DNA from: a bacterium
Lineage (GTDB): Bacteria > Patescibacteriota > Doudnabacteria > UBA920
NCBI GenBank assembly: GCA_021847435.1
Contig: JAJZRC010000004.1
Span: 1 to 40,217, forward strand
Direction of reading: 5' to 3'
Length of the DNA stretch: 40,217 bases
Part shown: piece by piece, positions 3,547-40,217 of the stretch
Layout: each line of letters begins with the position of its first letter
How positions within the stretch are numbered: the first letter of the stretch is position 1
The notes under the pieces: generated by a model
The model's database searches: none
What the model saw: only the letters and a program-made list of their open reading frames with translations
Told to the model about the DNA's origin: nothing
Position numbers and translations under genes: made by a program

Positions 3547-3762
3547 TAGGACTTACGCACCGCCGCTTTTTGGGCGGGCAGAGCCCACCCCATAAAAAGC
3601 GGCTCCGGCCAATTTCTTCGTTATTTTCCTGCGGTTTTTATCGGCGTAACCCGGCTACGCCTCCAAAAATCCCTGCCTGCCGGCAGGCAGGCTCGGAAAA
3701 TGCCCTCGCCTCGCTGAAGCTCCGGCGAAGCGGGTCGAACTTGGCTCAGTGCGAAAGTCCTA
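3547..3762 (+). mobile_element. MITE family A, copy A1 (216 bp, carries both micro-palindrome inserts)
   Basis: TAGGACTTACGCA...TGCGAAAGTCCTA ends; AAAGG duplicated at 3542-3546 and 3763-3767. Confidence 0.9.
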
Positions 3763-3885
3763 AAAGGGTAAAAATTTTAAATTTTAAATTTCAAAATCCG
3801 AACCACTAAAAATTTGGAGTGTTATGCCAATGTGTGGTATAATGTTTTAGGAATTTTCGTTTTGAAATCAAAATTTTAAAGCAAA

Positions 3886-5640
3886 ATGGACAAACAGCAG
3901 TTAAACCAGTTGCTCAAAGACAACAAGATTATCAGCGCCGACAAATTGGAGGTTTTGGAAAAGGACCGGATGCAGCTGAAATCGCCTTCCCCATGGGAGG
4001 ATTTTTTGGTTGAGAAAAAGGTCATATCCGAGGCAAAACTTTTGGAAATCAAGTCCAAGGCGCTTGGGGTCCCCGTGGCAGACTTAACCAGCCAGCAAAT
4101 CGCCCAGGACGTATTGAACATGGTGCCTGAGCCCATTGCTCACCGCCACCAGGTAATCAGCTTTGCCAAGACCAAAGAGGAGCTCTCTTTAGCCATGACC
4201 GACCCGGAGGACATCCAGACCAAAGAGTTCATCCAGAAAAAAACCGGTCTTGCAATCAAGGCGTATTTAATTGGCAAAACCAGCCTGGAATTTGGCTTGT
4301 CCAAGTACCATTCTTCGTTGGAAAAAGAGATTAAGCACCTGTTTACGCCGGAAGTTAAGCCCGCGTCCCCAAACGCAGAGATCCAATCCAGCCTGGATGA
4401 CGCTTTAAAGAAAATGGCAGAGGAGGTTCCCGTCATTCGCGTGGTGGACACCTTTTTGGAGTACGCGGTATTTGAAAAAGCGTCCGACATCCACATTGAG
4501 CCGCAGGAGAGCTCGGTGGTGGTGCGCTACCGCATTGACGGGGTGCTTCATGATGTCATGACCCTGCCTAAAGTCATCCAGGCGGCCATTGTGGCGCGCA
4601 TTAAGGTGCTTTCCAACCTAAAAATAGACGAACATCGCCTGCCCCAGGACGGCCGGTTCAAAATAGATAAAGACGGTTATAAGTTTTCTTTGCGCGTTTC
4701 CACCATTCCCATTTTCGACGGGGAAAAGGTGGTTATCCGCCTTTTGGACGAATCGGCCAAGGCTTTGAGCCTGGAGGAACTGGGTTTTGAAAAGGATTCC
4801 TTGGACATTATCAGCCGCAACATAAAAAAACCCCATGGCATGCTTTTGGTAACCGGCCCTACGGGAAGCGGGAAGTCCACCACCTTGTATACCGTGCTGT
4901 CCATGCTCAACACCAAATCCGTGAATATTTCAACCATTGAAGACCCGGTGGAATACCGTATTGTCGGGGCAAACCAGATGCAGGTAAACCCTAAAATCGG
5001 CCTGACTTTTGACGTGGGGCTGCGCGCCTTGCTCCGCCAGGATCCGAACATCATTATGATCGGTGAAATCCGCGACCGGGAAACCGCGGAAGAAGCCGTG
5101 CACGCGGCCATGACCGGACACATTGTGTTTTCCACCCTGCACACCAACAGCGCGGCCGCGGCCCTCCCCCGGCTATTGGACATCGGCGTGGAGCCTTACC
5201 TCATTGCCTCAACCGTTAATGCCGTGCTGGCCCAGCGGTTGGTGCGCGGAGTATGCAAGGACTGCCAGGCGGCTTACAAGCTGGAGGAGGCCGCCCTGGA
5301 GAATTTGTCCAAACAATTCCACATGGAGAAACTGCTTCCGGTTTTGCTGAAACAGGGCGCGGTTCCGTCTAAAACCAAGACACTTCAGGATTTAAAATTC
5401 TATAAAGGCCAGGGCTGCGACAAGTGCGGCCATACCGGGTATAAGGGCCGCCTTGGCATCCATGAAATTCTGGAAGTTACGCCCCAGGTTTCGCAGATGA
5501 TTATGGAGCACAAAAGCGCCCAGGAAATCCAGGACCAGGCGGAAAAAGACGGTATGGTGCTAATGTGGCAGGATGGCTTCATTAAGGCGATAAAAGGGAT
5601 TACGACCATCGATGAAATCGTCCGGGTAAGCAAGGAGTAG
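3886..5640 (+). CDS. pilB: Type IV pilus assembly ATPase PilB/GspE
   Basis: ASDIHIEP, Walker A GPTGSGKST, TIEDPVE, LRQDPNIIMIGEIRD, STLHTN and two CxxC Zn motifs. Confidence 0.93.
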   Translation: MDKQQLNQLLKDNKIISADKLEVLEKDRMQLKSPSPWEDFLVEKKVISEAKLLEIKSKALGVPVADLTSQQIAQDVLNMVPEPIAHRHQVISFAKTKEELSLAMTDPEDIQTKEFIQKKTGLAIKAYLIGKTSLEFGLSKYHSSLEKEIKHLFTPEVKPASPNAEIQSSLDDALKKMAEEVPVIRVVDTFLEYAVFEKASDIHIEPQESSVVVRYRIDGVLHDVMTLPKVIQAAIVARIKVLSNLKIDEHRLPQDGRFKIDKDGYKFSLRVSTIPIFDGEKVVIRLLDESAKALSLEELGFEKDSLDIISRNIKKPHGMLLVTGPTGSGKSTTLYTVLSMLNTKSVNISTIEDPVEYRIVGANQMQVNPKIGLTFDVGLRALLRQDPNIIMIGEIRDRETAEEAVHAAMTGHIVFSTLHTNSAAAALPRLLDIGVEPYLIASTVNAVLAQRLVRGVCKDCQAAYKLEEAALENLSKQFHMEKLLPVLLKQGAVPSKTKTLQDLKFYKGQGCDKCGHTGYKGRLGIHEILEVTPQVSQMIMEHKSAQEIQDQAEKDGMVLMWQDGFIKAIKGITTIDEIVRVSKE

Positions 5641-5650
5641 AAAGTGAATT

Positions 5651-5742
5651 ATTCTAATTTAACTAATTTCTAATTATTCTAAATGTTTTAAAAAAACCGG
5701 AAACGTAGACTTAGGTAATTAGTGCAATTAGGTCAATTAGGA
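5651..5742. repeat. Two opposed arrays of ~9-nt degenerate repeats (CTAAT x4, then ATTAG x4)
   Basis: CTAA(T) at 5654, 5663, 5670, 5679; (A)TTAG at 5711, 5718, 5727, 5736. Confidence 0.55.
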
Positions 5743-5751
5743 ATTTTCTAT

Positions 5752-6960
5752 ATGGATTTCGTCTATTCCGCCATCAATAAAGCCGGGCAAAAGGAAACTG
5801 CCACCATACAGGCGCCCAATGTCATTGCCGCCGGACACATGCTCAAGGAGCAGGGGCTGACCGTTACCCGCTTGCAGGAAAGCGGCAAGAAGTCTTTTTT
5901 TAAATCTTTGGAAAATTTTTCCACCATTTCCCTTGATGAAAAAATCAATTTCGTGGAAAATTTAAGCGTAATGCTTAAAGCGGGCATCTCAATCAGCCGC
6001 GGCCTGCAAATCCAGGTCAGGCAGACAAAAAACACGAAATTTAGGAATATTCTAACCGATGTTTATAATCAGGTACAGCAGGGCAAAGGTTTGTCCGAGG
6101 CCCTTGAGAAATACCCGGGTATTTTTTCCAACATTTTTTACAGCATGATCAAGGTCGGGGAAGTGTCCGGCAATTTGGACAAAAGCCTGGAATATTTGAG
6201 CATACAGCTGCACCGCGAGGCGGATCTTAAGAGCAAGACCAAAGGCGCCATGATCTATCCTTCGGTAATTGTGGCTGCCATGCTGATTGTGGGGGTGCTT
6301 ATGTCGATTTTCGTACTCCCCAAATTAACCTCGGTTTTCAAGGAGTTCGGCGGCACCTTGCCGCTGACTACGCGCATAGTCATCGCGTTTGCCGATTTTA
6401 TGAGCGCCCACGCGGTCATGGTCCTGCTGGCGCTTGCCGCTGCCGTGGCTGCCGCGGTATCTTTTTATAAAACCCGCGAGGGCCAAAAGCTTTTTGACAA
6501 CTTTATTCTGCGGTTCATGGTGGTAAATGCCATAGTCAAGAAAATTAATTTAGCCAGGTTTGCCCGCATCTTAAGTTCGCTGTTAAAAAGCGGCATCCCA
6601 ATAGTCCAGGCCCTGGAAGTGGCCAGCAATTCTCTGGACAATATTCCTTACCAAGAGCTGGTGAGGCAGGCAGCGGCAGACGTGAAATTAGGCAAGCCTT
6701 TGACCGAAACTTTAGGAAAAAATGAGAATTTATTTCCGGTTTTGGTCGTTCAAATGATCCAGGTGGGGGAGGAGAGCGGCACTGTGCAGGAAATTTTGGA
6801 GCAATTGGCCGTGCATTACGAGGAAGAGGTGGACAGTACTTTGCGCAACCTGTCTTCGGTTATTGAGCCGCTTCTGCTATTATTTATAGGTGGGGTGGTC
6901 GGCGTTTTAGCCATGGCTCTCATTGCCCCCATTTATAACATTAGTCAAACCATACAATAA
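5752..6960 (+). CDS. pilC: Type IV pilus inner-membrane platform protein PilC/GspF
   Basis: Two T2SSF repeats (GEVSGNL, GEESGT), AMIYP and IEP motifs. ATG 5752 is preferred. Confidence 0.92.
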   Translation: MDFVYSAINKAGQKETATIQAPNVIAAGHMLKEQGLTVTRLQESGKKSFFKSLENFSTISLDEKINFVENLSVMLKAGISISRGLQIQVRQTKNTKFRNILTDVYNQVQQGKGLSEALEKYPGIFSNIFYSMIKVGEVSGNLDKSLEYLSIQLHREADLKSKTKGAMIYPSVIVAAMLIVGVLMSIFVLPKLTSVFKEFGGTLPLTTRIVIAFADFMSAHAVMVLLALAAAVAAAVSFYKTREGQKLFDNFILRFMVVNAIVKKINLARFARILSSLLKSGIPIVQALEVASNSLDNIPYQELVRQAAADVKLGKPLTETLGKNENLFPVLVVQMIQVGEESGTVQEILEQLAVHYEEEVDSTLRNLSSVIEPLLLLFIGGVVGVLAMALIAPIYNISQTIQ

Positions 6961-6974
6961 GCTTGCATCTATTT

Positions 6975-8039
6975 ATGAGCCTGCATTTCATGCCTGAAAA
7001 TTTACCTGCCTTCGGCCTTGATTTAAGCGGAAATTCGTTTAAGGTCATGCAGCTGCACAATAAAGGCAAAAAAATAGCCTTAAAGGGTTATGCAGAGGCG
7101 GTTCTGCCCAAAGGCATGATGGTTAATGATGCCGTTACCGATGCCAAGACTTTTCAGTTTATGCTCAAGCAGGCGCTGAATAAGCCGCAGTTCGGCAAAA
7201 TTGACACGAATTATGCGATTGTCAGCCTGCCGGAGTCCAAATCTTTTGTCCGCGTGGTACAGATACCGTTAATGAGCGAAGCGGAAGCGGAAAGCGCCGT
7301 GCCGTTTGAAGCCGAAAGCTTTATTCCTCTGCCAATTGATCAGGTTTACATGGATTGGCAAAAAATCGGCATAAGCGGGGACAAAATGGATATCTTGATG
7401 ATTGCTTCCCCCAAGGAGTTTGTGGACAAATATCTTGAAGTTCTGGAAAAGGCCGGCATTACTCCGGCGGCTCTGGAAGTGGAATCCCAGAGCTGCCATC
7501 GGGCTTTGATTCCATCTGAATCTCAAGAGACCGTACTTATCATAGATATGAATACCCATCGCACCAGCTTGATTATGGTAGAAAATGGAAGTTTGCAATT
7601 TACTTCCACCATTCCGATCGGCGGAGGCTCTTTTACCGAAAGCATTGCCAGATCGCTCGGGGTATCCAGCATTAAAGCCGAGGAAATCAAGGTAAAGGTA
7701 GGCTTGGCAAACACGGCGGAGTATCCGAACATCCGTACCCAGCTTTTGCCCGCATTGACCAATTTAAGCGCTGAAATCAGGAATATTTTAAAATTCCACA
7801 GCGAACATTCCGAGAAGCAGGTCAGCCGGATAGTTTTGGCCGGGGGGAGTTCCCGGCTTAAGAATTTGGCGGAATTTTTATCCGCCCAATTGCAGGACGC
7901 GGGCGTCCAAAGGGTTGGCTTGGCCGAACCTTGGCAGAATCTCGGCATGGCTCAGCCGCCCATGGACCCGGAAGAGAGTCTTGGCTATGTTACGGCAATC
8001 GGTTTGGCTATGCGCGGGGTTAATTATAAAGTATTTTAA
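6975..8039 (+). CDS. pilM: Type IV pilus assembly protein PilM
   Basis: Actin-like fold motifs FGLDLS, IIDM, LAGGSS, AIGLAMRG; operon context. Exact start is uncertain. Confidence 0.88.
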   Translation: MSLHFMPENLPAFGLDLSGNSFKVMQLHNKGKKIALKGYAEAVLPKGMMVNDAVTDAKTFQFMLKQALNKPQFGKIDTNYAIVSLPESKSFVRVVQIPLMSEAEAESAVPFEAESFIPLPIDQVYMDWQKIGISGDKMDILMIASPKEFVDKYLEVLEKAGITPAALEVESQSCHRALIPSESQETVLIIDMNTHRTSLIMVENGSLQFTSTIPIGGGSFTESIARSLGVSSIKAEEIKVKVGLANTAEYPNIRTQLLPALTNLSAEIRNILKFHSEHSEKQVSRIVLAGGSSRLKNLAEFLSAQLQDAGVQRVGLAEPWQNLGMAQPPMDPEESLGYVTAIGLAMRGVNYKVF

Positions 8040-8047
8040 CTAATGCA

Positions 8048-8602: not shown

Positions 8603-8604
8603 TT

Positions 8605-9156: not shown

Positions 9157-9160
9157 TTTT

Positions 9161-9454
9161 ATGCTGGAAAATTTTGCCAAACTAAATTTAATCGCCCTTA
9201 AGAATTATTTTGGCCGGCTGGGCCAGAATTTATCCTGGCTGTTTTTGATCGTATTTGTCGCGGTGTTAGCAATGGAATTTTTTACGCTGAAAAATTCGTG
9301 GAGAATCGTCAGCGAGTCGCGCATTGAACCGCCGTTTGTCGCCAAAGACAAAGGGGTGAGAATAAATTTTGAGAACTACAATTTTGCGGTAAAAAAGATC
9401 GAGGATGGCAGGATTTATGAACCGCCGGAAAGCGCCATACCCAGCCCGTTTTAA
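9161..9454 (+). CDS. Small single-TM protein at the pilP position, ending PSPF
   Basis: Co-oriented 4 nt after pilO, with one hydrophobic helix. Confidence 0.6.
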   Translation: MLENFAKLNLIALKNYFGRLGQNLSWLFLIVFVAVLAMEFFTLKNSWRIVSESRIEPPFVAKDKGVRINFENYNFAVKKIEDGRIYEPPESAIPSPF

Positions 9455-9460
9455 TTTTTA

Positions 9461-9493: not shown

Positions 9494-9625
9494 ATTATGC
9501 AAGTCCGAATGCTCCGCAGCTCGCGGCGGCGATTAGGCCGTTATAAATTGGGCGGCGGAGCCGCATCTCCTCATAAAGCAGTTGCCCTGATACTCCGCAG
9601 CTTGAGCTGCGCAGTCAACTTCATT
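9492..9625. repeat. Degenerate hairpin element, possibly a distant relative of family B
   Basis: Starts TTATTA; contains AATGCTCCGCAGCT and GATACTCCGCAGCTTGAGCTGCG; shares GCAGTCAACT with B4; ends CTTCATT. Confidence 0.35.
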
Positions 9626-9629
9626 TCGG

Positions 9630-9658
9630 TTGGCATGAATGAGAATTTCAGTTATAAT
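9630..9658 (+). promoter_or_regulatory. Sigma70-type promoter for tRNA-Arg
   Basis: TTGGCA-17 nt-TATAAT. Confidence 0.6.
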
Positions 9659-9724
9659 TTACCAGATGCACGCTGCATACCAAGTTTGCAATCTGTCAGT
9701 GCATCGGCCGGGCTTGTCTGACCG

Positions 9725-9801
9725 GACCTCGTAGCTCATTTGGATAGAGCGCTTGGCTTCGAACCAAGAGGCAGCAGGTTCAAATCCTGCCGAGGTCACC
9801 A
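9725..9801 (+). tRNA. tRNA-Arg(UCG)
   Basis: Acceptor stem GACCTCG/CGAGGTC; anticodon arm CTTGG-CTTCGAA-CCAAG; T loop GTTCAAATC; encoded CCA. Confidence 0.96.
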
Positions 9802-9816
9802 GACGAGCCCGGCCTT

Positions 9817-9990
9817 TTTATTAGCGGCGTAGAGCGAGTAAAAGAGTCCTTAAGGACTCTTTTACGAGCCTGAGCCTGCCTGCCCCTGCCGGCAGGGAGC
9901 TGATACAGGTTCAATACCTCGGAGCTCTGCTCCGAAATGACAGATGTCTTTTGCGGTAATACCTCGTCAGCTTGCTGTGAGGAACCTTTA
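9817..9990. mobile_element. Family B hairpin element, copy B1 (right end interrupted by MITE A2)
   Basis: TTTATT-AGCGGCGTAGAGCG...GAGGAACC-TTTA; the terminal TTTATT is completed at 10208-10213 once A2 is removed. Confidence 0.8.
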
Positions 9991-10206
9991 TAGGACTTAC
10001 GCACCGCCGCTTTTTTAGACTGGCAAAGCCAGTTCCCAAAAAGCGGCTCCGGCCAATTTCTTCGTTATTTTCCTGCGGTTTTTATCGGCGTAACCCGGCT
10101 ACGCCTCCAAAAATCCCTGCCTGCCGGCAGGCAGGCTCGGAAAATGCCCTCGTCTCGCTGAAGCTCCGGCGAAGCGGGTTGAACTTGGCTCAGTGCGTAA
10201 GTCCTA
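9991..10206 (+). mobile_element. MITE family A, copy A2 (216 bp)
   Basis: Perfect TAGGACTTACGCAC/GTGCGTAAGTCCTA ends; CTTTA duplicated at 9986-9990 and 10207-10211. Confidence 0.92.
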
Positions 10207-10208
10207 CT

Positions 10209-11461: not shown

Positions 11462-11473
11462 ATATTTGCCGTT

Positions 11474-11647
11474 TTTATTAGCGGCGTAGAGCGAGCAAAA
11501 GAGTCCTTAAGGACTCTTTTACGAGCCTGAGCCTGCCTGCCTGCCGGCAGGGAGCTGATACAGGTTCAATACCTCGGAGCTCTGCTCCGAAATGACAGAT
11601 GTCTCTTGCGGTAATACCTCGCCAGCTTGCCGCGAGGAACCTTTATT
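11474..11647. mobile_element. Family B hairpin element, copy B2
   Basis: Near-identical to B1 and B3; TTTATT at 11474-11479 and 11642-11647. Confidence 0.82.
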
Positions 11648-11672
11648 CAAAAAGCGCCGCGCCAATCCTTAA

Positions 11673-12139: not shown

Positions 12140-12313
12140 TTTATTAGCGGCGTAGAGCGAGCAAAAGAGTCCTTAAGGACTCTTTTGCGAGCCTGAGCAT
12201 CCCTGCCGGCAGGCAGGGAGCTAATACAGGTTCAACACCTCGGAGCTCTGTACCGAAATGACAGATGTCTCTTGCGGTAATACCTCGTCAGCTTGCTGCG
12301 AGGAACCTTTATT
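12140..12313. mobile_element. Family B hairpin element, copy B3
   Basis: TTTATT at 12140-12145 and 12308-12313; same internal palindromes as B1 and B2. Confidence 0.82.
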
Positions 12314-12530: not shown

Positions 12531-12537
12531 TATGCGG

Positions 12538-15702: not shown

Positions 15703-15866
15703 TAGGACTTATGCTCTTGCCGCTCTAGACCCGGCGGAGCCGGGTCCGCAAGCGGCTTTGGCCAATTTCTTCGTTATTTTCCTGCGGTTTTTATCGGCGT
15801 AACCCGGCTACGCCTCCAAAAATCCTCGGAAAATGCCTCAAATTTGGCTCAAAAGCGTAAGTCCTA
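15703..15866 (+). mobile_element. MITE family A, copy A3 (164 bp, no inserts)
   Basis: TAGGACTTATGCT...AGCGTAAGTCCTA; TTTAT duplicated at 15698-15702 and 15867-15871. Confidence 0.9.
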
Positions 15867-15875: not shown

Positions 15876-15909
15876 AAAAGGCCATACCGGATTGCCGGCG
15901 CGGCCTTTT
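15876..15909. terminator. Terminator-like hairpin
   Basis: AAAAGGCC...GGCCTTTT with an inner CCGG/CCGG stem. Confidence 0.5.
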
Positions 15910-15941
15910 AATTGTGCAATTACATATTAAATTACGTAATT

Positions 15942-15981
15942 AAAAAAACCCCGCCCTGAGCTTGTCGAAGGGCGGGGTTTT
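15942..15981 (-). terminator. typA terminator whose apex is the micro-palindrome CCCTGAGCTTGTCGAAGGG
   Basis: AAAACCCCGCCC...GGGCGGGGTTTT; T7 tract on the minus strand. Confidence 0.7.
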
Positions 15982-17832: not shown

Positions 17833-17927
17833 TAGGACTTACGCACTGAGCCAAGTTCGAGGCATTTTCCGAGGATTTTTGGAGGCGTAGCTCTGCCCGC
17901 CCAAAAAGCGGCGGTGCGTAAGTCCTA
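17833..17927 (-). mobile_element. MITE family A, copy A4 (95 bp, internally deleted), in the typA 5' UTR
   Basis: Perfect 14-bp TIRs; TTTTT on both sides; left arm matches A1. Confidence 0.88.
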
Positions 17928-30635: not shown

Positions 30636-30902
30636 ATGCAAGAAAATTACAAAAAGAAGCTAATCCATCACCTTCACAGGATTAAAGGCCAAGTAGAGGG
30701 TATTGAAAGGATGGTGGAGGCCCGCAAATATTGCGTTGATATTATGACGCAAAGTTTGGCTGTGGAGAAATCCTTGGAGCGATTTAATGCCGACCTTTTA
30801 GAAAACCATTTAACCGAACACGTATTCCACCAGTTTATGCATGGCCAATCCGCCAAAGCGACAGACGAGATGCTGAAAATTTTTAAATTGAAAAATAAAT
30901 AG
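30636..30902 (+). CDS. csoR: CsoR-family metal-sensing repressor
   Basis: L.RIKGQVEGIERMV....YCVDI..Q..AV and LLENHLTEHV; the second Cys position appears to be His. Confidence 0.9.
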   Translation: MQENYKKKLIHHLHRIKGQVEGIERMVEARKYCVDIMTQSLAVEKSLERFNADLLENHLTEHVFHQFMHGQSAKATDEMLKIFKLKNK

Positions 30903-30908
30903 CGTTTT

Positions 30909-31364
30909 ATGCAAGCGTCTTTCTCCAAAAAAATAATGTCTCAGGCTGGCCTGGTTATTTCCGCCGTTGTTTTGGCGATTGCTTTTTTTGGACCCGCCCA
31001 GGCGCACCATGGCGAGTTTATGGAAGCGCATAACCCAGCATCTTTTTGCCGCGCGCAAGGCTGCGGAGAGCCGATGGGAGACTTGTTTTGTTTCAGCCAG
31101 TGTTTGAGTGTTTTTGCAAGCAACCTGCAAACTTTGCCGGCGAAGACGCCAGTTTTTTTGCCGTATGTTTTGGTTTTTTGTTTGCTTATTTCCATCAATT
31201 ACCTCGCGGCCGGGGGCAGACCATTTTATTTCAAATCGTTTATTCGTAAAAAGCGAGAGGTGTTCGCTCGAAGTTTTTTTGTTCAAATCGGCAGATGGTT
31301 GATTTTGTTCGGCAAGCGGGATCCCGCCGAAGTTTTTGCGTTAATTCAGTTGCGCAACATTTAA
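30909..31364 (+). CDS. Hypothetical exported His/Cys-motif membrane protein
   Basis: Signal peptide AQA-HH, C-x4-C and CFSQC, a TM helix and a basic tail with KRDP. Confidence 0.65.
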   Translation: MQASFSKKIMSQAGLVISAVVLAIAFFGPAQAHHGEFMEAHNPASFCRAQGCGEPMGDLFCFSQCLSVFASNLQTLPAKTPVFLPYVLVFCLLISINYLAAGGRPFYFKSFIRKKREVFARSFFVQIGRWLILFGKRDPAEVFALIQLRNI

Positions 31365-31409
31365 CGATAAACGGCAGTATTCAATTGCGGTTTCAACACA
31401 ATAAAATTT

Positions 31410-32747
31410 ATGCATAAACTCATAATCCCTATAAAAGGGATGCATTGTAAATCTTGTGAACTTCTGATTGAAGACAACTTAAGAAAGCTCCCAGGCGTAA
31501 AAAGGGTCGAGGTGAGCCATATTTCCGGAAAAGCAAAAATATGGTGCGATGACGGCACCCCGCCTGCTAAAAGCATTGGCGCAGCGGTGGAAGACGCGGG
31601 TTATACTTTAGGACAGGAAGATAAAAAGCATTGGTTTTCCAGAAATTCCCAGGATTACCTGAATTTGGTGAATGCGGGTGGAATTTTGCTGGTCCTCTTT
31701 TTCCTAGCCCAAATTTTCGGTTTTTCCGACATGGCTGGAAATTTTCAGCAGAAAAGCATAGCCATGTCTTTGGTGGTGGGCTTGGTGGCAGGAGTTTCTT
31801 CCTGCATGGCTTTGATAGGCGGGTTGGTTCTGGCTTTGTCCGCCAGGCACTCGGAACTCCATCCGGAGGCCAGCCGAATGCAAAAATTTCGTCCCCATTT
31901 GTTTTTTAATCTAGGAAGGGTTCTGGGCTTCGCCGTACTGGGGGGGCTAATCGGCATGGCGGGAGGGGCGCTGCAGCCATCCGCAAAGTTTATGGGCCTG
32001 CTTACGTTGTTAGTCGGCGGCGCGATGCTTGTGATGGGATTGAAGCTTATTGAGATATTTCCCATTTTGCAGAAAGTAAATATAGCTTTGCCAAAATTTG
32101 TTTCCAAGCTTTTTGGGATAAAACGGGAGCAGAAAGAATACAGCCACAAAGGCGCGGTTTTGGGAGGGGCGCTGACTTTCTTTTTGCCTTGCGGTTTTAC
32201 GCAAGCCATGCAGCTTTACGCCGTAAGCACCGGCAGTTTTGTTTCCGGGGCTTTAATAATGTCTCTGTTTGCCTTAGGCACTTCCCCGGGGTTATTGGGC
32301 ATAGGCGGGCTTTCCAGTGCTTTTAAAGGTTCAAAGGCGAAAGTATTTTTTGCAGCGGCGGGATTGGCCGTGATAATTTTGGGGATATTTAATATCTTCA
32401 ACGCGAGCCAATTGGCGTTTTCTTCAGGGCCCGCCCGGAACCAAACAAATAAAACCATTTCTCCGAGCGCGCCTGCCGAAGGAGCGCAGGAAGTACGAAT
32501 GACGCAAGGGGCTTCGGGCTACTCGCCTAATAAGCTGACTGTTAAGAAAGGGATTCCGGTTAGGTGGATAATCAGCTCCACTAACCAGTATTCCTGCGCC
32601 GCCTTTCTCATAATGCCGAAATATGGCATCAACCAAGCGCTTAAAAGCGGAGAAAATATAATTGAATTTACGCCTGAAAAGTCAGGAGAGATTCCTTTTT
32701 CATGTTCAATGGGCATGTATAGAGGCAAGTTCATCGTAACCGATTAA
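31410..32747 (+). CDS. HMA + DsbD_2/TauE-like membrane domain + cupredoxin-like domain protein
   Basis: GMHCKSC, SSCMALIGG, FFLPCGFTQ and C-terminal FSCSMGMY. Confidence 0.88.
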   Translation: MHKLIIPIKGMHCKSCELLIEDNLRKLPGVKRVEVSHISGKAKIWCDDGTPPAKSIGAAVEDAGYTLGQEDKKHWFSRNSQDYLNLVNAGGILLVLFFLAQIFGFSDMAGNFQQKSIAMSLVVGLVAGVSSCMALIGGLVLALSARHSELHPEASRMQKFRPHLFFNLGRVLGFAVLGGLIGMAGGALQPSAKFMGLLTLLVGGAMLVMGLKLIEIFPILQKVNIALPKFVSKLFGIKREQKEYSHKGAVLGGALTFFLPCGFTQAMQLYAVSTGSFVSGALIMSLFALGTSPGLLGIGGLSSAFKGSKAKVFFAAAGLAVIILGIFNIFNASQLAFSSGPARNQTNKTISPSAPAEGAQEVRMTQGASGYSPNKLTVKKGIPVRWIISSTNQYSCAAFLIMPKYGINQALKSGENIIEFTPEKSGEIPFSCSMGMYRGKFIVTD

Positions 32748-32761
32748 TCAACTTCATATTT

Positions 32762-32977
32762 ATGGCTACAACAAAATTTCAACTCGCAAATTTGAACTGT
32801 TCCGCTTGCGGGAAAGTTTCGCAAATGAAAATTAGCAGAATAAAAGACGTAACCCAAGTCAGGATCGAGCAAAACGGCGGCTCCGCGCTGGGGGAATTGG
32901 AAGCCGGCCGGGAAATCCCGATTTTAGAGCTTGAGGAGGCTTTGGCAGGCACGGGCTATAAAGTGCGTTTAGTATAA
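32762..32977 (+). CDS. Small HMA-domain metallochaperone
   Basis: NLNCSAC and ALAGTGY. Confidence 0.8.
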   Translation: MATTKFQLANLNCSACGKVSQMKISRIKDVTQVRIEQNGGSALGELEAGREIPILELEEALAGTGYKVRLV

Positions 32978-33006
32978 CCGGTTGTAATTAAACATTAAAA
33001 AATTTT

Positions 33007-36000
33007 ATGGAAAATATATTTAAACTAAATGTCCAAGGCATGCATTGTGAATCTTGCGAAATCTTGATCAAAAGCGAGCTGAAGGAAATGCCCGGAATTA
33101 CAGAGGTTCGGATTTCCGCAAAAAACGGGCAAGGTTCGGTAAAAACAAATTTAAATTCAGTTACCGCATCTGATATACAGCAGGCTATCAAACGGGCTGG
33201 GTACGAAAGCGTCGTAACAGAAGATCATTCAATGCACGCGGGGAATAAGCAAATGGCAGAAGTGATGGACGGCGGGCAAAAAGCCGGGGTGCCTTTTTCA
33301 ATGAAACTGGAAAATAGAATTGAGGCCCAAGGCCGGGTATTGGAAAACTCGGAAAACGAGCCTTATTTTGAAGGCAAGCTCTCCAATTACAAGAATGCCG
33401 AAATTAATGTGCCGCCCGGTCAAGAGGCAACAAAAAATTATCTGGAACAATTGGTTAAAAGCGCCAACCTTTTTAGGGTTTTTGATCGTTTTGGCGGGGC
33501 GCAGGAAGAAGCTGTTTTGGCTAATTCCGGTTTGAACCGGCATCCGGCTAAAACCGCGGTTATGCCGGGAACCGGCAGCGGCGAGAACCGCAAAATAAAT
33601 TTGTCGCTTTCCGGCATGCATTGCGCCTCCTGCGCCGGGATTATTGAAAGATCTTTGCGGAAAGTGCCTGGCGTCATTCAGGCCAATGTAAATTTTGCCG
33701 CGGAAAAAGCCCAAGTTACTTTTGGCTCCGCGGCAAAAACCGGAGATTTAATTGATGCTGTAAAAAAAGCCGGATACGAAGCCGTTGAAATCGATGTCAA
33801 AGACACCGGGTTTGATGCCAGAAAAAGGCAGGCAGAGATTAGTTCGTATTCCAAAAAGCTTGTATTTAGCGTCATTTTAAGCCTGCCGATGCTATACTTC
33901 ATGTTTTTTGATTTTTTTGCCAGGGTTCCTGGCAAGGCATGGCTTTTGCCTTACGTCGGGATAGCGTCTTTAGTACTCGCTACTCCCGTTCAATTTATTA
34001 TCGGCAAGGGTTTCTATAAGGGCATGTGGTCATCGCTGCGCATGAAGACTTTTAACATGGATAGCCTTATTGCCATTGGCACTTCCACGGCTTATTTTTA
34101 CAGCCTCATAACTTTAATGCTCTATGCGATTGCCAATAAAAGCATCATCGGGTTAAATGGCGGAAAAATTCAAAACCTGTATTTTGAAACCGCCGCTTTT
34201 CTGATTACCTTTGTAATTTTAGGCAAATGGCTTGAAGTAAGGACAAAGGGAAAAACTTCGGACTCAATTAAAAAATTAATGGGGTTGCAGGCCAAAACAG
34301 CCCGAGTTATCCGCAACAGTGCCACTCAGGATATCCCAGTTGACCAAGTTGCGCTAAAAGATATTGTTATTGTGCGCCCGGGTGAAAAAATTCCGATTGA
34401 CGGCCGGATAACAAAAGGATCTTCCGCGGTGGATGAATCAATGCTGACCGGAGAAAGTCTGCCAGTTGAAAAGAAGGCCGGGGACAGCGTCGCCGGCGGG
34501 ACAATCAATAAAACCGGCAGCTTCGAATTTGAAGTAACCAAAATCGGGAATGATACCGTACTCTCCCAAATTATCAGGTTGGTTGAAGAAGCCCAGGGAT
34601 CCAAAGCGCCCATTCAAGATTTTGCGGACAAAGTCTCTTCCTGGTTTGTGCCGGCTGTTATTGGCATTGCGGTTGCCACGTTTCTGATTTGGTATTTTCT
34701 CCTGGGGGCAACCCTGGCTTTTGCCTTAATGGCCTTTACTTCCGTAATTGTAATTGCCTGCCCGTGCGCGCTGGGTCTTGCTACGCCGACTGCCATTATG
34801 GTCGGGACCGGCAAAGGCGCGGAAAACGGGATTTTAGTCAAAGGTGGGGAGCCTTTGGAGGCTGCTTGCAAGCTTGATGCTATCGTGTTTGATAAAACCG
34901 GGACTTTGACATACGGCAAGCCGGAAGTAACGGATGTGCTTGCTTTAACAGGCAAAGACGAAGAGGAAGTCCTGCAGATTGCCGCCAGTCTGGAAAAACT
35001 TTCAGAACACCCCCTTGCCGAGGCCATTTACAGCCATGCCCAGGATGAAGGCGTGAGTTTGTTGGAAGCTTCAAACTTTAAGGCAATCCCGGGGCACGGA
35101 GTGCAAGGCGAGATAGCCGGAACAACCTATTATTTCGGCAACCGAAAAATGATTTCAGATGTTGCGGGGGCGGCGGTGGAGAAGATTGGCAGAAAACAAG
35201 CTAAATTGGAAGAAGCTGGCAAGACAACAATGCTCTTGGCTACCAAAGAGGGCCTGGCCGGGTTGGTTGCGGTGGCGGATACGGTAAAATCGACCACGAA
35301 AACCGCAATCGAAAAACTTCAAAAAATGAAAATAGAAGTTTATATGATTACCGGTGACAATGAGCGTACCGCCCGGGCGATTGCTTCCCAGGTGGGGATC
35401 ACAAACGTGCTGGCGGAAGTGTTGCCGGAAGACAAGGCTAATGAAGTCAAAAAGCTCCAGGCGGAAAACAAGAAAGTGGCCATGGTCGGGGACGGGATTA
35501 ATGACGCTCCTGCTTTGGCCCAGGCGGATTTAGGCATTGCAATGGGCAGCGGAACAGACGTGGCCATGGAAACCGGCGGGGTAATAATTATGAAAAATGA
35601 TTTAAATGACGTGGCAAATGCCATTCAGCTCTCCAGGGAAACCATGGCTAAAATTAAACAGAATATGTTTTTTGCTTTGTTTTATAATGTAATTGGCATT
35701 CCTATTGCTGCCCGCGTTTTCGCGTCTTTCGGTCTTGTGTTGAAACCGGAACTGGCCGGTTTGGCTATGGCTTTAAGCTCCGTGTCAGTAGTTACCAATT
35801 CTTTAACCTTAAGATTCTTTAAGCCCGGTAAAAGAAATTGGGTTTCTTTATTGGCCCCCGCGCTGATGGTTTTGGTGTTTGGGTTTGCTTTCTTTGAATT
35901 CGCCAAATTCAGCAGCCGCATGGCCGAACCGGCGTCCGCGATGGCCGTTCAAGCCGCAAGTCCGGAAATTGCCGGCAAAGCGCGGCGGTTAGTTTCCGCT

Positions 36001-36369
36001 TCGCCGATAATAATCAACTTCGCGGCAGCCGGCCCGAAATTTTTTGTAATCAGCCCAGGCGATTTTATAGATCTGCCCATTCAGGCCGGGCAAAATCGCT
36101 TGGGGAAGGACGGGATGATTATTGGCGCGAGCGAGGCTGAAATGATGATCCGGGAAAAACTGTTTGAAAAACCGGGCGACAGTTTGTCTGATTTTTTCGG
36201 CGTCCCCAATATGAAAATAGTCGGCATATTAAAATCTACGGGAACCTTCCTGGACAATACCCATATTATTAAAGGCGAAACTCAAGTCGCGTCTGCGGCG
36301 GAAGGTTTCGCCAAAATGAACGGCGCAGAATTGAAATTATTAGGACTTACGCTTTTGAGCCAAGTTTGA
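33007..36369 (+). CDS. copA: Cu(I)-translocating P1B-ATPase with a C-terminal extension, 3'-truncated by MITE A5
   Basis: Two HMA domains (GMHCESC, GMHCASC), TGES, CPC, DKTGT, SEHP, GDGIND, YN and MALSS. The last ~9 codons derive from the MITE. Confidence 0.93.
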
Positions 36370-36504
36370 GGCATTTTCCGAGGATTTTTGGAGGCGTAGC
36401 CAGGCTACGCCAATAAAAACCGCAGGAAAATAACGAAAAAATTGGCCAAAGCCGCTTGCTGACCCGGCTTTGCCGGGTCTAAAGCGGCAAGAGCGTAAGT
36501 CCTA
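36341..36504 (-). mobile_element. MITE family A, copy A5 (164 bp), inserted in copA
   Basis: TIRs; ATTAT duplicated at 36336-36340 and 36505-36509; removal restores the frame. Confidence 0.93.
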
Positions 36505-36509
36505 ATTAT

Positions 36510-36778
36510 TCTATGTTATTTCTGCAAACAATATTCCCCAGGTGTTTGCTGGCAATGTCGGGAAAGACAGCTTGTTGCCGGTTGTGCTGGGTTCCAAGAA
36601 GCTTTCTCCTGTATTTGTCGGGGAAAGCGAGGCCGAGGCGATGCGGAAGGAAAAACTGTTCGTAAAAGAAGGAGATACGCTGTCCGGATTCTTTGGCAAT
36701 GATGCGATTATTTCTTCTATTTTGCCGAAAACCAAAACCGAGTTGGACAATTTTCATTTTGTAACGCAGGATTTTATT
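36510..36778 (+). pseudogene. Severed 3' part of copA (second copy of the C-terminal domain)
   Basis: In frame with copA after removing A5 plus one ATTAT; GESEAEAMRKEKLF..GDTLSGFFG repeats [23 protein letters not shown]. Confidence 0.85.
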
Positions 36779-36945
36779 AGCGGCGTAGAGCGAGTAAAAG
36801 AGTCCTTAAGGACTCTTTTACGAGCCTGAGCCTGCCTGCCAGGCAGGGAGCTGATACAGGTTCGAATATCTCGCAGCTCTGCTGCGAAATGCAGTCAACT
36901 CCTTGGGTTCAATGCCTCGGAGTTCTACCCCGAGGCGCCTTTATT
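36773..36945. mobile_element. Family B hairpin element, copy B4 (diverged right half)
   Basis: TTTATT at 36773-36778 and 36940-36945; left half is essentially identical to B1. Confidence 0.8.
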
Positions 36946-37079
36946 CGGGAAAATTATGGAAATTAAAAAAACTTTGATATAATAAATATCCAAGAACATA
37001 AGAAATTAAAAATGGAAATGCCTCGCTCATTGCCGTTTAACAAGCCCGACCAATGGAAGAGCCTGAGAATGGATAATTA

Positions 37080-37273
37080 TAGGACTTACGCATTTGGCCA
37101 AGTTCGAGGCATTCTGCGAGCCTGCCTGCCGGCAGGCAGGGATGTTTCGAGCCGTGGTGAAACTACGGCGAGAAAGACCGCAGTAAAATAACGAAGAAAT
37201 AGGCCAAACTTAAGCGCAGCTGCCCTAAAATTCGGGCTTTGCCCGATTTTGGACAGCAAGTGCGTAAGTCCTA
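37080..37273 (-). mobile_element. MITE family A, diverged copy A6 (194 bp)
   Basis: Perfect 13-bp TIRs; AATTA duplicated at 37075-37079 and 37274-37278; 20-bp palindrome at 37121-37140. Confidence 0.9.
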
Positions 37274-37289
37274 AATTAATCAGAAAAAT

Positions 37290-37772
37290 ATGAAAATAAC
37301 AAACAAAGGTTTAGGGAGCGTGCTTTTGTCGGCATTGTTTTTTCTGTCGGCTGGCAGTGCGTTAGCCGCGACCCTCCAGCCAGGTTATGGCATGATGGGT
37401 ACGGCCACAATTTCAAATGGTAATGCGGTATACCAAACCCAGTCCGCCAGCGGACAAAAAATTCAGGGTTACATGTACAAATTGCAGCAGGGGCAGTTAA
37501 CGGCTGAAGAGCAAAAGGATATGTATGGCTTTATGGCTGCGCCCGCCGGCGTTTCCGGTTCGTTTGCGTTCCCTCCCATGATGGGTTATGCGGCAGCATC
37601 TTCAGCGGGCCAAGGCCAATTTTTTTACCGCTCCGGCTCTATGATGTCCGGCTGGGGAAATAAGGGCGCCTGGTATGCGCTGATGCATATTTTAACCGTA
37701 GTTTTAGTTTGGACAGCGCTGCTGTTGTGCATTGCAGCGCTGTTTAAATACATAAAACACAAACAACATTAA
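37290..37772 (+). CDS. Exported Met/Gly-rich protein with a C-terminal TM anchor
   Basis: Signal peptide (ALA-A), GMMG/PMMG/SMMSG motifs and a C-terminal TM helix, within the copper cluster. Confidence 0.75.
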   Translation: MKITNKGLGSVLLSALFFLSAGSALAATLQPGYGMMGTATISNGNAVYQTQSASGQKIQGYMYKLQQGQLTAEEQKDMYGFMAAPAGVSGSFAFPPMMGYAAASSAGQGQFFYRSGSMMSGWGNKGAWYALMHILTVVLVWTALLLCIAALFKYIKHKQH

Positions 37773-37783
37773 AACCAGTTTGC

Positions 37784-38818
37784 ATGCAAAATGCTTCGTT
37801 TGTCGCCATATTTTTAACCGGATTATTGACCGGCGGACTGACTTGCCTGGCCGTTCAGGGAGGGCTGCTTGCCGCCACCATTGCCCAGCGCGAGGAAGAG
37901 CGTTTAAAGCAGCAGGCCGGCCGCAGCGGGGCGGCTTTGCCGATTGTATGGTTTTTGGCGGCGAAGCTTGCGGCATATATTTTGTTGGGCGTGCTGTTGG
38001 GATGGTTTGGGTCCCTGTTTGATTTGTCCTTGGGCGTGAAATTGGCCATGCAGTTTGCGGTCGTGATTTTTATGATTGGCACAGCCGGCGCGCTTTTGGA
38101 CTTGCATCCTTTTTTCCGCTATTTTGTCATCCAACCCCCAAAGTTTTTAATGCGCATGGTCCGGAATAAGTCCAAGAGCCGGGATGCGTTTGCGCCGGCC
38201 ATTTTGGGCGCGTTTACCGTTTTTATTCCTTGCGGTACCACCCAGGCCATGATGGCTCTGGCCATTGCCAGCGGCAGCCCTTTTCGGGGAGCTGGAATAA
38301 TGTTCTCTTTTGTGCTAGGCACCACCCCGCTGTTTTTCCTGTTAGGCTATTTTGCCGCGCGCCTGGGAGATGCCCGGAGCAGGAAATTTCTTCGCGTTGC
38401 AGCCCTGGCTGTGGCAGTGCTGGCTTTGTTCAACCTTAACAATGCTTTGGCTTTAACGGGCAAGCCTATAACTTTCGGCCAGCTGGCCAAGTCCGCTGCG
38501 TGCATGGTGGCGTACTGCGGTCCTGATGAAGGAACCGCGGCACCGGCCGCAGGTGTTCGGGCCGAAATCACAATCGGGACATACGGTTACTCGCCTAACA
38601 GCATCAGTCTAAAAAAAGACAGCGACGTGACAATAAAATTGTTTAATAAAGACGGCACAAGCTGCGCCCAGGCTTTTACTATCCCGTCCTTGCGGATACA
38701 GAAGCTGGTACCCGTAGGGCAAACCGAGGAAATAACTTTCCATACCCCCTCCGAACCGACCCGGATTGCATTCATGTGCAGCATGGGCATGTATAGGGGA
38801 ATAATTAACGTAAATTAA
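37784..38818 (+). CDS. DsbD_2/TauE-like membrane domain + cupredoxin-like domain protein
   Basis: GGLTCLAVQGGLL, FIPCGTTQ and FMCSMGMY. Confidence 0.87.
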   Translation: MQNASFVAIFLTGLLTGGLTCLAVQGGLLAATIAQREEERLKQQAGRSGAALPIVWFLAAKLAAYILLGVLLGWFGSLFDLSLGVKLAMQFAVVIFMIGTAGALLDLHPFFRYFVIQPPKFLMRMVRNKSKSRDAFAPAILGAFTVFIPCGTTQAMMALAIASGSPFRGAGIMFSFVLGTTPLFFLLGYFAARLGDARSRKFLRVAALAVAVLALFNLNNALALTGKPITFGQLAKSAACMVAYCGPDEGTAAPAAGVRAEITIGTYGYSPNSISLKKDSDVTIKLFNKDGTSCAQAFTIPSLRIQKLVPVGQTEEITFHTPSEPTRIAFMCSMGMYRGIINVN

Positions 38819-38830
38819 TTTTTTAACCGC

Positions 38831-39043
38831 ATGTCGGAAACCATTCAGTTAAAAATTTCGGGTTTGCACTGCACTTCCTGCGCCATGAACATTGACGGTG
38901 ATTTGGAAGACGCCGAAGGCGTGTTTTCGGCGCAAACCAGCTACGCCAAGTCCCAAACTTTGGTGGAGTACGATCCGCAAAAAATTTCGCAGGAAAAAAT
39001 ACGGGAAATAATCAAGAAAGCGGGTTACGAAGCCGAAAATTAA
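38831..39043 (+). CDS. CopZ-like copper chaperone
   Basis: GLHCTSC and IKKAGY; 70 aa. Confidence 0.88.
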   Translation: MSETIQLKISGLHCTSCAMNIDGDLEDAEGVFSAQTSYAKSQTLVEYDPQKISQEKIREIIKKAGYEAEN

Positions 39044-39056
39044 AGAAGGGGTTTTT

Positions 39057-39085
39057 ACCCCTGTATACGCAGGGGTTTTTATTTT
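39057..39085 (+). terminator. Terminator of the copper cluster
   Basis: ACCCCTG-TATACG-CAGGGGT followed by TTTTATTTT. Confidence 0.7.
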
Positions 39086-39140
39086 GGCCTGGACAAAAAT
39101 ATAGACTTGTCGCATAATCCGCTCAGATAGGCAAGGAGGT

Positions 39141-39695
39141 TTGATGGGAAAGAGGAATTTTTGTCTTACCCCGCCGCCGGTTCGCCCCAAAAAGGCAGCG
39201 GCCAAGCGGAAACCTTCCGGCAAACCATGCTACGGCGTGTCCTTTAAGGGCAAGCCGTTTGGCATAACCTACACGCACCAGGGCGAAAACAGGGCCGTTT
39301 CCAACGTCCTGTACCGAAACCGCATGCTGTTTGAAAAACAGGGCCTGGCCTTGTCCGAGGCTAAAAAGCAGATGGCTGCCGTCCGGCTCAATAACCCCGA
39401 CGAATGGAAAGGCAAACTCAAGCCGGCTAAGCCGAAGTTGCTCTGGCAGCCGCTGAGAAACGGCCGCCCCATTGCAGACAGACCCGCTACCCGCGCGGTT
39501 TCCGCTGCCCAGGCTGCGGACAATGCCTGGTTCGCAATGTGCAGGCCGGATCTGCGCGAGGCCACGGAGGAGGACAAGAGGATATACCGCGAGGAGATGG
39601 CCGCGCGTCCGGTATTCGGCCAGGAGCGCCAGCGCCGCCATGGGGCATTGCGCAAACTCAGTCATGTTCAGCAGTCCAGCCTCTTTCCGCACTGA
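39141..39695 (+). CDS. Hypothetical basic protein
   Basis: AAGGAGG upstream of ATG 39144 and a strong terminator immediately downstream; no recognisable family. Confidence 0.55.
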   Translation: MMGKRNFCLTPPPVRPKKAAAKRKPSGKPCYGVSFKGKPFGITYTHQGENRAVSNVLYRNRMLFEKQGLALSEAKKQMAAVRLNNPDEWKGKLKPAKPKLLWQPLRNGRPIADRPATRAVSAAQAADNAWFAMCRPDLREATEEDKRIYREEMAARPVFGQERQRRHGALRKLSHVQQSSLFPH

Positions 39696-39701
39696 TTGCG
39701 G

Positions 39702-39741
39702 GGGCCGCGAATTTCCATGATCGGAAATTCGCGGCCCTTTT
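39702..39741 (+). terminator. Intrinsic terminator
   Basis: 15-bp perfect stem GGGCCGCGAATTTCC/GGAAATTCGCGGCCC followed by TTTT. Confidence 0.75.
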
Positions 39742-39790
39742 GCTTTTTATCGCGCCGCATTTGGGTTATAATTATATCAAGGAGCAATTA

Positions 39791-40087
39791 ATGGCAATAA
39801 TATCAAGTTCAATAATCTATCAGCTTGCTGTTATACTTGGCCTGATCAATCTGGCAACTTTTATGATGGTTGGCTGGGATAAGCGCAGAAGCCTTAAGCA
39901 GGCAGATCGCCTGCCCGAAGCCTTGTTGTTTTTTGCCGCAACAGCTTTCGGGTCTTTGGGAGTTTTTTTGGGCATGTTTGCGTTCCGCCACAAGACCCGC
40001 AAAATTTATTTTCCTTTGGGGATAGGCCTGTTGCTCGGCCAGCAGGCTTGGCTGCTTTACCTGTCTTATTCAAATATAAAATTTTAA
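39791..40087 (+). CDS. DUF1294-family membrane protein
   Basis: INL.TF...GWDK, R.PE..L, G.FLGM..FRHKTRK; AGGAG SD before ATG 39791. Confidence 0.85.
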   Translation: MAIISSSIIYQLAVILGLINLATFMMVGWDKRRSLKQADRLPEALLFFAATAFGSLGVFLGMFAFRHKTRKIYFPLGIGLLLGQQAWLLYLSYSNIKF

Positions 40088-40090
40088 TAC

Positions 40091-40217
40091 TAGGACTTAC
40101 GCTCTTGCCGCTTTAGACCCGGCAAAGCCGGGTCAGCAAGCGGCTTTGGCCAATTTTTTCGTTATTTTCCTGCGGTTTTTATCGGCGTAGCCTGGCTACG
40201 CCTCCAAAAATCCTCGG
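40091..40217 (+). mobile_element. MITE family A, copy A7, truncated by the window end
   Basis: Starts TAGGACTTACGCT; matches the reverse complement of A5 with one difference over 127 nt. Confidence 0.9.

Follow-up and report, generated by a model that had tools for sequence, protein, structure and literature searches.

Within the IS701 group, ISPlag1 of Planktothrix agardhii is known to be accompanied by 197-bp end-bearing sequences, which were described as IS remnants (PMC2464740). For the IS701 family as a whole, De Palmenaer et al. reported a 4-bp target duplication and a size of 1,400–1,550 bp (PMC2266710). The main text of a survey of MITEs in 183,232 genomes, in its available part, mentions neither Patescibacteria or CPR nor IS701, and its supplements may list the present family (PMC11602168). 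Our literature searches found no description of MITEs in CPR genomes, nor of micro-palindromes of the kind reported below.

Here we analyzed a 40,217-nt stretch of DNA (the window), which is the entire contig C16 of a CPR-type assembly (GCA_021847435.1, hereafter G000; ~1.0 Mb or 1,008 kb, 65 contigs, 97% complete), so that its last repeat, A7, is cut by the assembly. The original prediction of seven copies of a repeat, six of them complete and flanked by perfect 5-bp duplications, was confirmed exactly in both coordinates and duplications (Table 1). In total, 13 ends in the window lie within one mismatch of an 11-mer core, compared to a mean of 0.63 and a maximum of 4 in 200 base shuffles. 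It was further predicted that A7 should end near position 40254 and be followed by AATAC. Indeed, contig C3 opens with the missing half, giving an implied end at 40254 followed by AATAC. The two halves belong to the same subfamily, overlap by 94 bp and imply a length of 164 bp. The overlap and the duplication, in place of a spanning read, thus suggest that C16 and C3 are adjoined.

Table 1 Positions of repeat copies, their parts and the interrupted gene in the window
Feature	Position	Strand	Description
A1	3547..3762	-	216 bp; A subfamily; 30-bp and 20-bp optional inserts; duplication AAAGG
A1 optional insert	3672..3691	.	20-bp perfect palindrome, without duplication
A1 optional insert	3705..3734	-	30-bp hairpin
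A2	9991..10206	-	216 bp; A subfamily; inserts at 10116-10135 and 10149-10178; duplication CTTTA
A3	15703..15866	-	164 bp; T subfamily; duplication TTTAT
A4	17833..17927	+	95 bp; internal deletion, ends intact; duplication TTTTT
P1B-type ATPase gene	33007..36369	+	stop now within A5; catalytic domains (residues 427-841) intact
A5	36341..36504	+	164 bp; T subfamily; duplication ATTAT
A5 core hairpin	36359..36446	+	four stems with purine-rich GA loops between; covaries across relatives
A5 second hairpin	36451..36488	+	GC-rich, more variable; adjoins right end
Orphaned 3' ATPase piece	36505..36829	+	frame still open
A6	37080..37273	+	194 bp; divergent A sub-lineage; 20-bp insert at 37121-37140; duplication AATTA
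A7	40091..40217	-	T subfamily; truncated by contig end; remainder opens contig C3

Across G000, the family comprises about 40–42 copies, namely 29 paired copies, 14 halves at contig ends and 3 decayed ones. The elements are 95–239 bp long, non-coding and multicopy, and they are bounded by 12–14 bp complementary ends, in agreement with the proposed MITE identity. Position 13 is matched between the two ends in 29/29 paired copies, with A/A in 22, T/T in 7 and no mixed pair, which extends to the genome the covariation claimed for the window; besides the A and T subfamilies, a G-type decayed MITE is located at C4:5445. A perfect 5-bp duplication flanks 22 of the 28 scorable paired copies, against 1.3% of mismatched flank pairs. 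For three copies without a duplication (C4, C25 and C60), the exact flank partners sit on other contigs or copies, indicating crossed joins. Furthermore, of the 14 halves at contig ends, 8 can be assigned to one another, as their duplications are identical and their subfamilies agree.

The original prediction also held that such density would be notable in a reduced CPR-like genome and that the family is recently mobile, and each of these claims stood in part. The host is of the CPR type, but the seven copies in 40 kb represent a local peak, ~4 times denser than the about 42 copies in 1,008 kb. Copies diverge by 2.6%–4.4%, which is recent in evolutionary terms. Current activity finds no such support, given that the 29 copies comprise 28 distinct sequences with one identical pair, and that the contigs of four runs yielded no empty allele at the A5 and A6 sites; contigs drop rare variants, so this absence is no evidence of fixation. 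A 2-kb query is matched by 17 of 18 congeneric genomes, many of them at the element. A paired-end pattern with a 100–130-nt gap matched 2 of 401 genomes of the phylum, but this gap is too short for the family and the count is hence little informative. The plasmid search gave no whole-element match and the viral contigs no left-end match; a relaxed core pattern yielded 19 matches in viral sequences, three of them real-looking by eye (L098, L099 and L108) and 16 chance-like.

The gene context is as first claimed, with A1, A2, A3 and A7 after stop codons, A4 and A6 in 5' regions and A5 inside a coding sequence. A1 lies 3 nt past the stop of a sugar-transferase gene, A2 has inserted where a family-B repeat ends, 2 nt past the stop of a phosphoribosyltransferase gene, and A3 and A7 lie 9 and 3 nt past the respective stops. 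A4 is inserted 10 nt upstream of typA/bipA, between this gene and a promoter-like match (18000-17972), and A6 is 16 nt upstream of an open reading frame. A5 splits a P1B-type (heavy-metal) ATPase gene ~90 codons short of its normal end. In the congener G009, the orthologous site is empty and reads uninterrupted as AELKLFYV. At least three genes are interrupted in total, the others being, as judged from their translations, a NUDIX-like gene and one resembling a four-helix bundle. The target profile favors AT-rich places, and the sites just past stop codons are such places.

Autonomous elements with the same ends were found in the same genus and the same family. L040 (genome G004, same genus) and L039 (genome G097, same family), which are ~1.1 kb long, score 358 and 334 bits, respectively, on the IS701 model NF049921 (cut-off 250 bits). 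Identity between the MITEs and autonomous elements reaches 18–20 terminal nucleotides. The sequence of the IS ends in G004 is ...ACGCCTTT. Two MITEs of that genome, which contain the same core, show this variant at both termini and have perfect duplications; two T-type copies there are without duplications. The partner transposases retain D74/D75, D158 and E258, share RWKIEEFHR in three proteins and lack the YREK tyrosine. Among the six complete autonomous elements for which both flanks are present, four show 5-bp duplications, two from CPR (L040 and L048) and two from outside CPR (L180 of Methanosarcina and L181 of Gloeocapsa). Against an IS701 mover count the two other complete elements, L039 without a duplication and L073 with a 4-bp repeat, as well as two NF049921-like loci (L072 and L075) without such ends and the 4-bp duplication published for the family (PMC2266710). 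In G000 itself, the sole IS701 trace is a G-type remnant of ~105 bp (C62:3484-3594; 82% over 79 nt), which the family profile search missed and tblastn found. Also on the opposing side, no intact transposase turned up in G000 with NF049921, NF033540, PF13546 and PF01609 (0 matches each), and none of its contig ends shows sequence of the IS type in place of the MITE type. The autonomous elements found include none of the T type, and those of the A type (L039, L071 and L073) belong to other genera or families. The earlier deduction of a DDE-type transposase acting in trans thus agrees with the D-D-E proteins of same-ended IS701 elements in relatives and the lack of an intact one in G000; the mover is identified to the family level, and its action in trans is what these sequences suggest.

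These data enable us to propose that the gene-less MITEs, whose ends and 5-bp duplications match those of 1.1-kb IS701 elements in relatives, were likely moved by an IS701 transposase acting in trans, a reading to which we assign a probability of about 85%. In this putative model, a transposase supplied in trans, of which G000 retains the short remnant, would have cut the MITEs, whose ends share 12–20 bp with the IS701 elements of close relatives, and pasted them into AT-rich sites. The clade with 1.1-kb elements likely did the moving. The A-, T- and G-type ends might represent separate waves, each driven by a different transposase variant; the paired end changes could alternatively stem from correction of the palindrome and not from a preference of the enzyme. 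Copy number would have risen through excision followed by repair from the sister chromosome, a route of copy gain familiar from IS4-superfamily elements in general.

When the interior of the MITEs was compared with five autonomous elements, shared words did not exceed 13 nt. Judged against these five parents, it is a separately conserved, older hairpin riding in the shell rather than a deleted IS. Among the core pairs, 16 of 27 show two-sided changes and 96% of cells pair, a level reached by 0 of 500 shuffles, with the structure derived from the same alignment on which the pairs were counted. One strand folds better in 24/24 copies. In related genomes, the orientation between co-directional genes is 42:8 as counted by a crude ORF caller, such that the mRNA mostly carries the weaker-folding strand; G000 itself shows no significant bias. 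The bias is most readily read as a purging of the better-folding orientation, which would do harm in operons more frequently; it could instead reflect a bias of insertion relative to replication. The core also hosts optional inserts of 20–42 bp, and the 29 paired copies include eight with a 20-bp palindrome and five with a 30-bp hairpin. The palindrome occurs at 19 sites in G000, eight of them in the paired copies, and thus also outside the MITE shell. Cyanobacterial small dispersed repeats are likewise very short palindromes inserted without duplication.

Such a hairpin raises the question of whether it is itself the spreading unit, moved as single-stranded DNA by an HUH (Y1/RAYT-type) transposase, with the IS701-like ends being incidental. 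In relatives, the same core resides in shells bounded by different ends (L117, L129, L133 and L136) or is found where no ends are evident (L118, L134 and L145), its pairing is strand-asymmetric, and G000 has nine Y1_Tnp matches and no match to the TnpB zinc-finger, all of which would fit this mechanism. However, the insertion boundaries in G000 are IS701 ends with 5-bp duplications, which refutes the mechanism for the G000 burst; HUH enzymes are not known to make target duplications. Moreover, all 36 core-pattern matches in G000 lie within copies of the family or their contig-end halves, neither the core nor any optional insert lies closer than 220 nt to the eight Y1 loci examined among the nine, and A4 has lost half of the core yet keeps intact ends and its duplication. 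We therefore give HUH-driven spread very little credence, although an HUH mechanism may apply to the core in its earlier history or to the 20–42-bp inserts. The repeats and duplications might also be taken for artefacts of assembly or binning, considering the 14 copies at contig ends and the few apparently crossed joins; but each of the 28 distinct sequences has its own duplication, and, of the 18 genomes searched in the genus, most contain related copies. In addition, independent contigs extend across both A5 junctions in run X1 (possibly the source sample) and, in run X4 from a different study, across the left A6 junction with no differences. An artefact is thus already refuted, with a negligible residual probability.

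It is likewise improbable that the host keeps the element mainly as a domesticated regulatory structure, such as a terminator, a nuclease site or a small RNA, with mobility as a relic. The position of four of the seven window copies 2–9 nt past stops and the covarying core would suit such a role, as would old copies in one orientation between ribosomal-protein genes in relatives (L129, L132, L133 and L148). A further point in its favor is that the orientation bias in related genomes is strongest in copies without duplications (16:2) or without IS701 ends (14:1). On the other side stand the interrupted genes, the empty A5 site in a congener and the mixed orientation in G000 (12:8, p=0.5, not significant), and the sites past stops are those AT-rich places favored by the target profile. 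None of the copies matched an Rfam 15 model at E<=1, and a terminator scan across A3–A4 returned one site, which lies outside the copies, versus 4.2 in shuffles.

More tentatively, the real replicator might be the strand-specific GA-loop hairpin in a three-tier stack of parasites, repeatedly captured by different IS end-pairs; we regard this as rather doubtful, though worth stating. The hairpin would then be kept by some protein or by host selection, its ends would be swapped to follow the incoming transposase variant, and its GA loops might serve as a landing site for ultra-short mobile palindromes of 20–42 bp. If so, surviving copies in the operons of streamlined CPR genomes would have been sorted to one orientation and partly domesticated.

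These findings have several implications. About 40 copies and at least three gene interruptions in a 1-Mb, host-dependent genome indicate that streamlining in this lineage is compatible with bursts of selfish DNA. The repeats also fragment the assembly, and the duplications offer a means to pair the resulting halves. With an autonomous partner named in the same genus and end variants matched, both mobilization and end specificity become directly testable, and the 1.1-kb IS701 clade constitutes a native transposon for a group poor in genetic tools. Furthermore, the one-strand hairpin family with its precise micro-inserts provides a large natural alignment in which to look for whatever maintains the hairpin and the inserts.

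In summary, the elements belong to an already known class, the IS-dependent MITEs, and ISPlag1 is their named cyanobacterial relative. The ends of the A subfamily are identical to nucleotides 1–13 of the ISPlag1 terminal repeat, with C or T as the first base, in agreement with the similar cyanobacterial termini mentioned in the original prediction; the partner transposases have the C1 signature RWKIEEFHR in common with ISPlag1, and ISPlag1 also has short non-coding derivatives (PMC2464740). Unlike the ISPlag1 remnants as portrayed in the available text, the present interior has no IS homology and is a conserved hairpin, and the host is a 1-Mb CPR bacterium (PMC2464740). The IS701 end consensus ---YACT-Y--YR is fitted in part, with ACT at positions 5–7 and no pyrimidine at position 9, and the partners resemble IS701 in having D-D-E without the YREK tyrosine and in scoring above the cut-off of NF049921 (NCBIfam transpos_IS701_2); in contrast to the IS701 elements in the published part consulted, this clade measures ~1,100 bp, makes 5-bp rather than 4-bp duplications in the MITEs and most complete IS, and extends to Methanosarcina and Gloeocapsa (PMC2266710). 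An imperfect hairpin with conserved mismatches is shared with REP/REPIN sequences (RAYT Y1), but in G000 no Y1 gene examined is hairpin-flanked and the spreading unit is the IS701 shell (PMC3733652, as far as its available text describes them). Like Nezha, Chunjie, the MaeMITEs and QMITE2, the present elements are 95–240 bp long with duplications and ends in common with an intact IS, and they combine stable folds, intergenic bias and occasional gene disruption with tens of copies; as against the available descriptions of those families, the core found here is swapped between shells and accommodates optional, precise inserts (PMC3184786, PMC10969869, PMC2779907).

The assembly G000 comprises 1,008,292 bp in 65 contigs and is 97% complete; its 40,217-bp contig C16 is the entire window. 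The seven family-A MITE copies there (A1–A7) have the positions and lengths originally noted, with six perfect 5-bp duplications, all different. Allowing at most one mismatch to the 11-mer core, the window contains 13 ends, whereas 200 shuffles averaged 0.63. The truncated copy A7 had been predicted to end near 40254 and to be followed by AATAC. Indeed, the left half of a T-subfamily copy opens contig C3 and shares a 94-bp overlap with the end of C16; the joined copy would be 164 bp long (end at 40254), and AATAC comes next. A count over the whole assembly, as originally proposed, gave about 40 family-A copies, including 29 paired copies, 14 contig-end halves (eight matched up by exact duplication and subfamily) and three decayed copies. 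The density remarked on earlier is a local peak: with its seven copies, the window reaches about four times the G000 average. The co-variation of end position 13 noted earlier extends genome-wide, with A/A in 22 copies, T/T in seven and no mixed copy.

Perfect 5-bp duplications flank 22 of the 28 paired copies with both flanks, compared with 1.3% of mismatched flank pairs. The copies on C4, C25 and at C60:58686 lack a duplication, and the exact partners of their flanks are found at other places, pointing to crossed joins or to recombination; among the other non-perfect copies, two are one base off a duplication and one is diverged. The target sites are AT-rich without a fixed sequence. The seven T copies diverge by 2.6% and the 19 main A copies by 4.4%; a single pair is identical. 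Thus, the claim of recent mobility stands only in the sense of a burst that is young in evolutionary terms. For A5 and A6, the empty allele did not appear in contigs of four runs, a comparison that cannot show absence.

The family-A end motif recurs in ISPlag1 of Planktothrix (IS701 group), within its 29-bp repeat (PMC2464740), in agreement with the resemblance to cyanobacterial termini suggested earlier. A class-wide search for the autonomous partner yielded complete 1.1-kb elements with family-A ends in the congeneric G004 and in G097, a genome of the same family; their transposases pass the NF049921 IS701 model and retain D-D-E. Of 146 class genomes, 2 have a match above the cut-off, as do 5 of the 401 phylum genomes, and the partner transposase is also present in records of Ca. 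Doudnabacteria, Kerfeldbacteria and Falkowbacteria. Four of the six complete elements with both flanks, including those of Methanosarcina and Gloeocapsa, carry 5-bp duplications; one has a 4-bp repeat and one has none. Given that the IS701 duplication described in the published text is 4 bp (PMC2266710), the 1.1-kb elements with 5-bp duplications form, judging from their flanks, a clade departing from published IS701. Among the 9 loci listed for the 26 end matches of G004, two MITEs that share the core carry the end variant of the resident IS at both ends together with perfect duplications, and two T-type copies have neither.

Four family searches of G000 revealed no intact transposase. The IS701 trace is a right-end remnant (C62:3484-3594); its 34 codons share 62% identity with the G004 transposase, and its intact G-type end matches a decayed MITE at C4:5445. 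The A, T and G end types may represent separate waves, and the transposase of the A and T waves would have been lost, unassembled or of outside origin. A 1,111-bp contig consisting of the IS alone, in a record titled Bacteroidales (L047), encodes a protein identical to that of the G004 element; it is likely mis-binned, the alternative being transfer between CPR and other bacteria.

A5 interrupts a P1B-type ATPase gene, leaving the catalytic domains upstream and severing a 3′ piece of about 90 codons whose frame is still open. In the congener G009 the corresponding site lacks the element and is read uninterrupted as AELKLFYV, a sequence comparison that confirms A5 as an insertion with duplication. 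Copies at C36:21142 and C63:30348 split reading frames whose translations, as read, resemble a four-helix-bundle protein and a NUDIX hydrolase, respectively, and A4 is positioned between typA/bipA and a promoter-like match. The heavy-metal cluster at 30636-38818, struck by A5, A6 and one family-B copy, includes a CsoR-like repressor and DsbD-like membrane proteins (reading of translations) and the P1B ATPase (Pfam); the runs containing it are mine-drainage and sediment metagenomes.

The MITE interior is made up of two hairpins, an 88-nt core and a smaller GC-rich one, and shares nothing above 13-nt words with five autonomous elements. In 24 copies from G000, relatives and metagenomes, two-sided changes affect 16 of the 27 core pairs and pairing holds in 96% of cells, the structure being derived from the same alignment as counted and the sequences being related; none of 500 shuffles reaches the observed value, and slid controls stay at or below 52%. 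The inter-stem loops are conserved and purine-rich, with GA/GA at the inner loop in 20 of 24 copies, and the left-to-right strand folds better in all 24 with both RNA and DNA parameters. Recognizable IS701 ends are present at 16 of 30 core-pattern loci; the others include loci with different paired ends (L117, L129, L133, L136) or none (L118, L134, L145). IS701 ends also surround unrelated hairpins in other CPR genomes (L002, L010, L060). At G001:C5:29361-29387, two ends are joined with one base between, a 27-bp minimal shell. No Rfam family matched the element.

We propose, with a probability of about 0.85, that an IS701 transposase supplied in trans moves the MITEs. It would bind the paired ends, excise the element and reinsert it into AT-rich DNA through a cut staggered by 5 bp; insertions would fall mostly near gene ends, as AT-rich DNA is located there, and the core would be cargo with its own older history. 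Several core-pattern loci lie between ribosomal-protein genes. Of 93 elements from relatives, 50 are located between co-directional genes, and 42 of these 50 face so that the weaker-folding strand is in the mRNA (p ~1e-6, a significance exaggerated by the non-independence of related elements). The ratio is 12:5 where duplications are intact, 16:2 where they are missing and 14:1 where IS701 ends are missing; elsewhere it is 12:8 in G000 and 10:3 in metagenome loci. The likeliest cause of this orientation pattern would be the purging of one orientation from operons. At L129, L132, L133 and L148 (G116, G134, G135, G120), core-bearing elements occupy ribosomal-protein operon spacers, at two or three per 3 kb and in a single orientation relative to transcription. 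As alternatives to the IS701 reading, a domesticated regulatory element is very unlikely and an artefact extremely improbable; the family-A element is real.

Spread of the hairpin driven by Y1 (HUH) transposases is also very improbable. G000 has nine Y1 matches without TnpB (contigs C11, C14, C41, C51, C55, C57, C62), and neither core nor modules flank any of the eight examined. Optional modules of 30, 20 and 42 bp, present in 5, 8 and 3 of 29 copies, each sit at a CGAGG or CGAAG loop motif without duplication; the 20-bp palindrome occurs at 19 sites in G000, and in L087 at a different core position. Long perfect hairpins precede or follow several Y1 matches (C51, C57, C62). Repeat family B (about 13 copies in G000, about 100-200 bp) has TTTAT at both ends and no terminal inverted repeats, and is assembled from optional hairpin modules, among them the 20-bp palindrome; one guess is a non-autonomous element of the IS200/IS605 type. 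At least two family-A insertions lie in or beside family-B copies (A2, C7:4664). Another short hairpin repeat follows genes at 15908-15981, between A3 and typA, and at about seven other G000 sites. The GC-rich, non-coding segment at 9500-9720, upstream of the tRNA at 9725, contains hairpin-like segments and has no Rfam match.

Locations of optional hairpin modules and family-B copies in G000
Feature	Location	Positions
20-bp module (palindrome)	window	3672-3691, 10116-10135, 37121-37140
30-bp module	window	3705-3734, 10149-10178
42-bp module	contigs C19, C28, C55	
Family B copies	window	9816-9991, 11473-11650, 12140-12313, 36772-36946

Neither the literature searched nor the main text of an extensive MITE survey (PMC11602168) yielded a description of such MITEs in CPR genomes. 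MITEs with ends common to an IS are well known, as the sources consulted describe (PMC3184786, PMC10969869, PMC2779907, PMC3542288); what is new here is an autonomous partner within the genus whose end variants match, the confirmation of the A7 prediction, an empty orthologous site and the gene interruptions.
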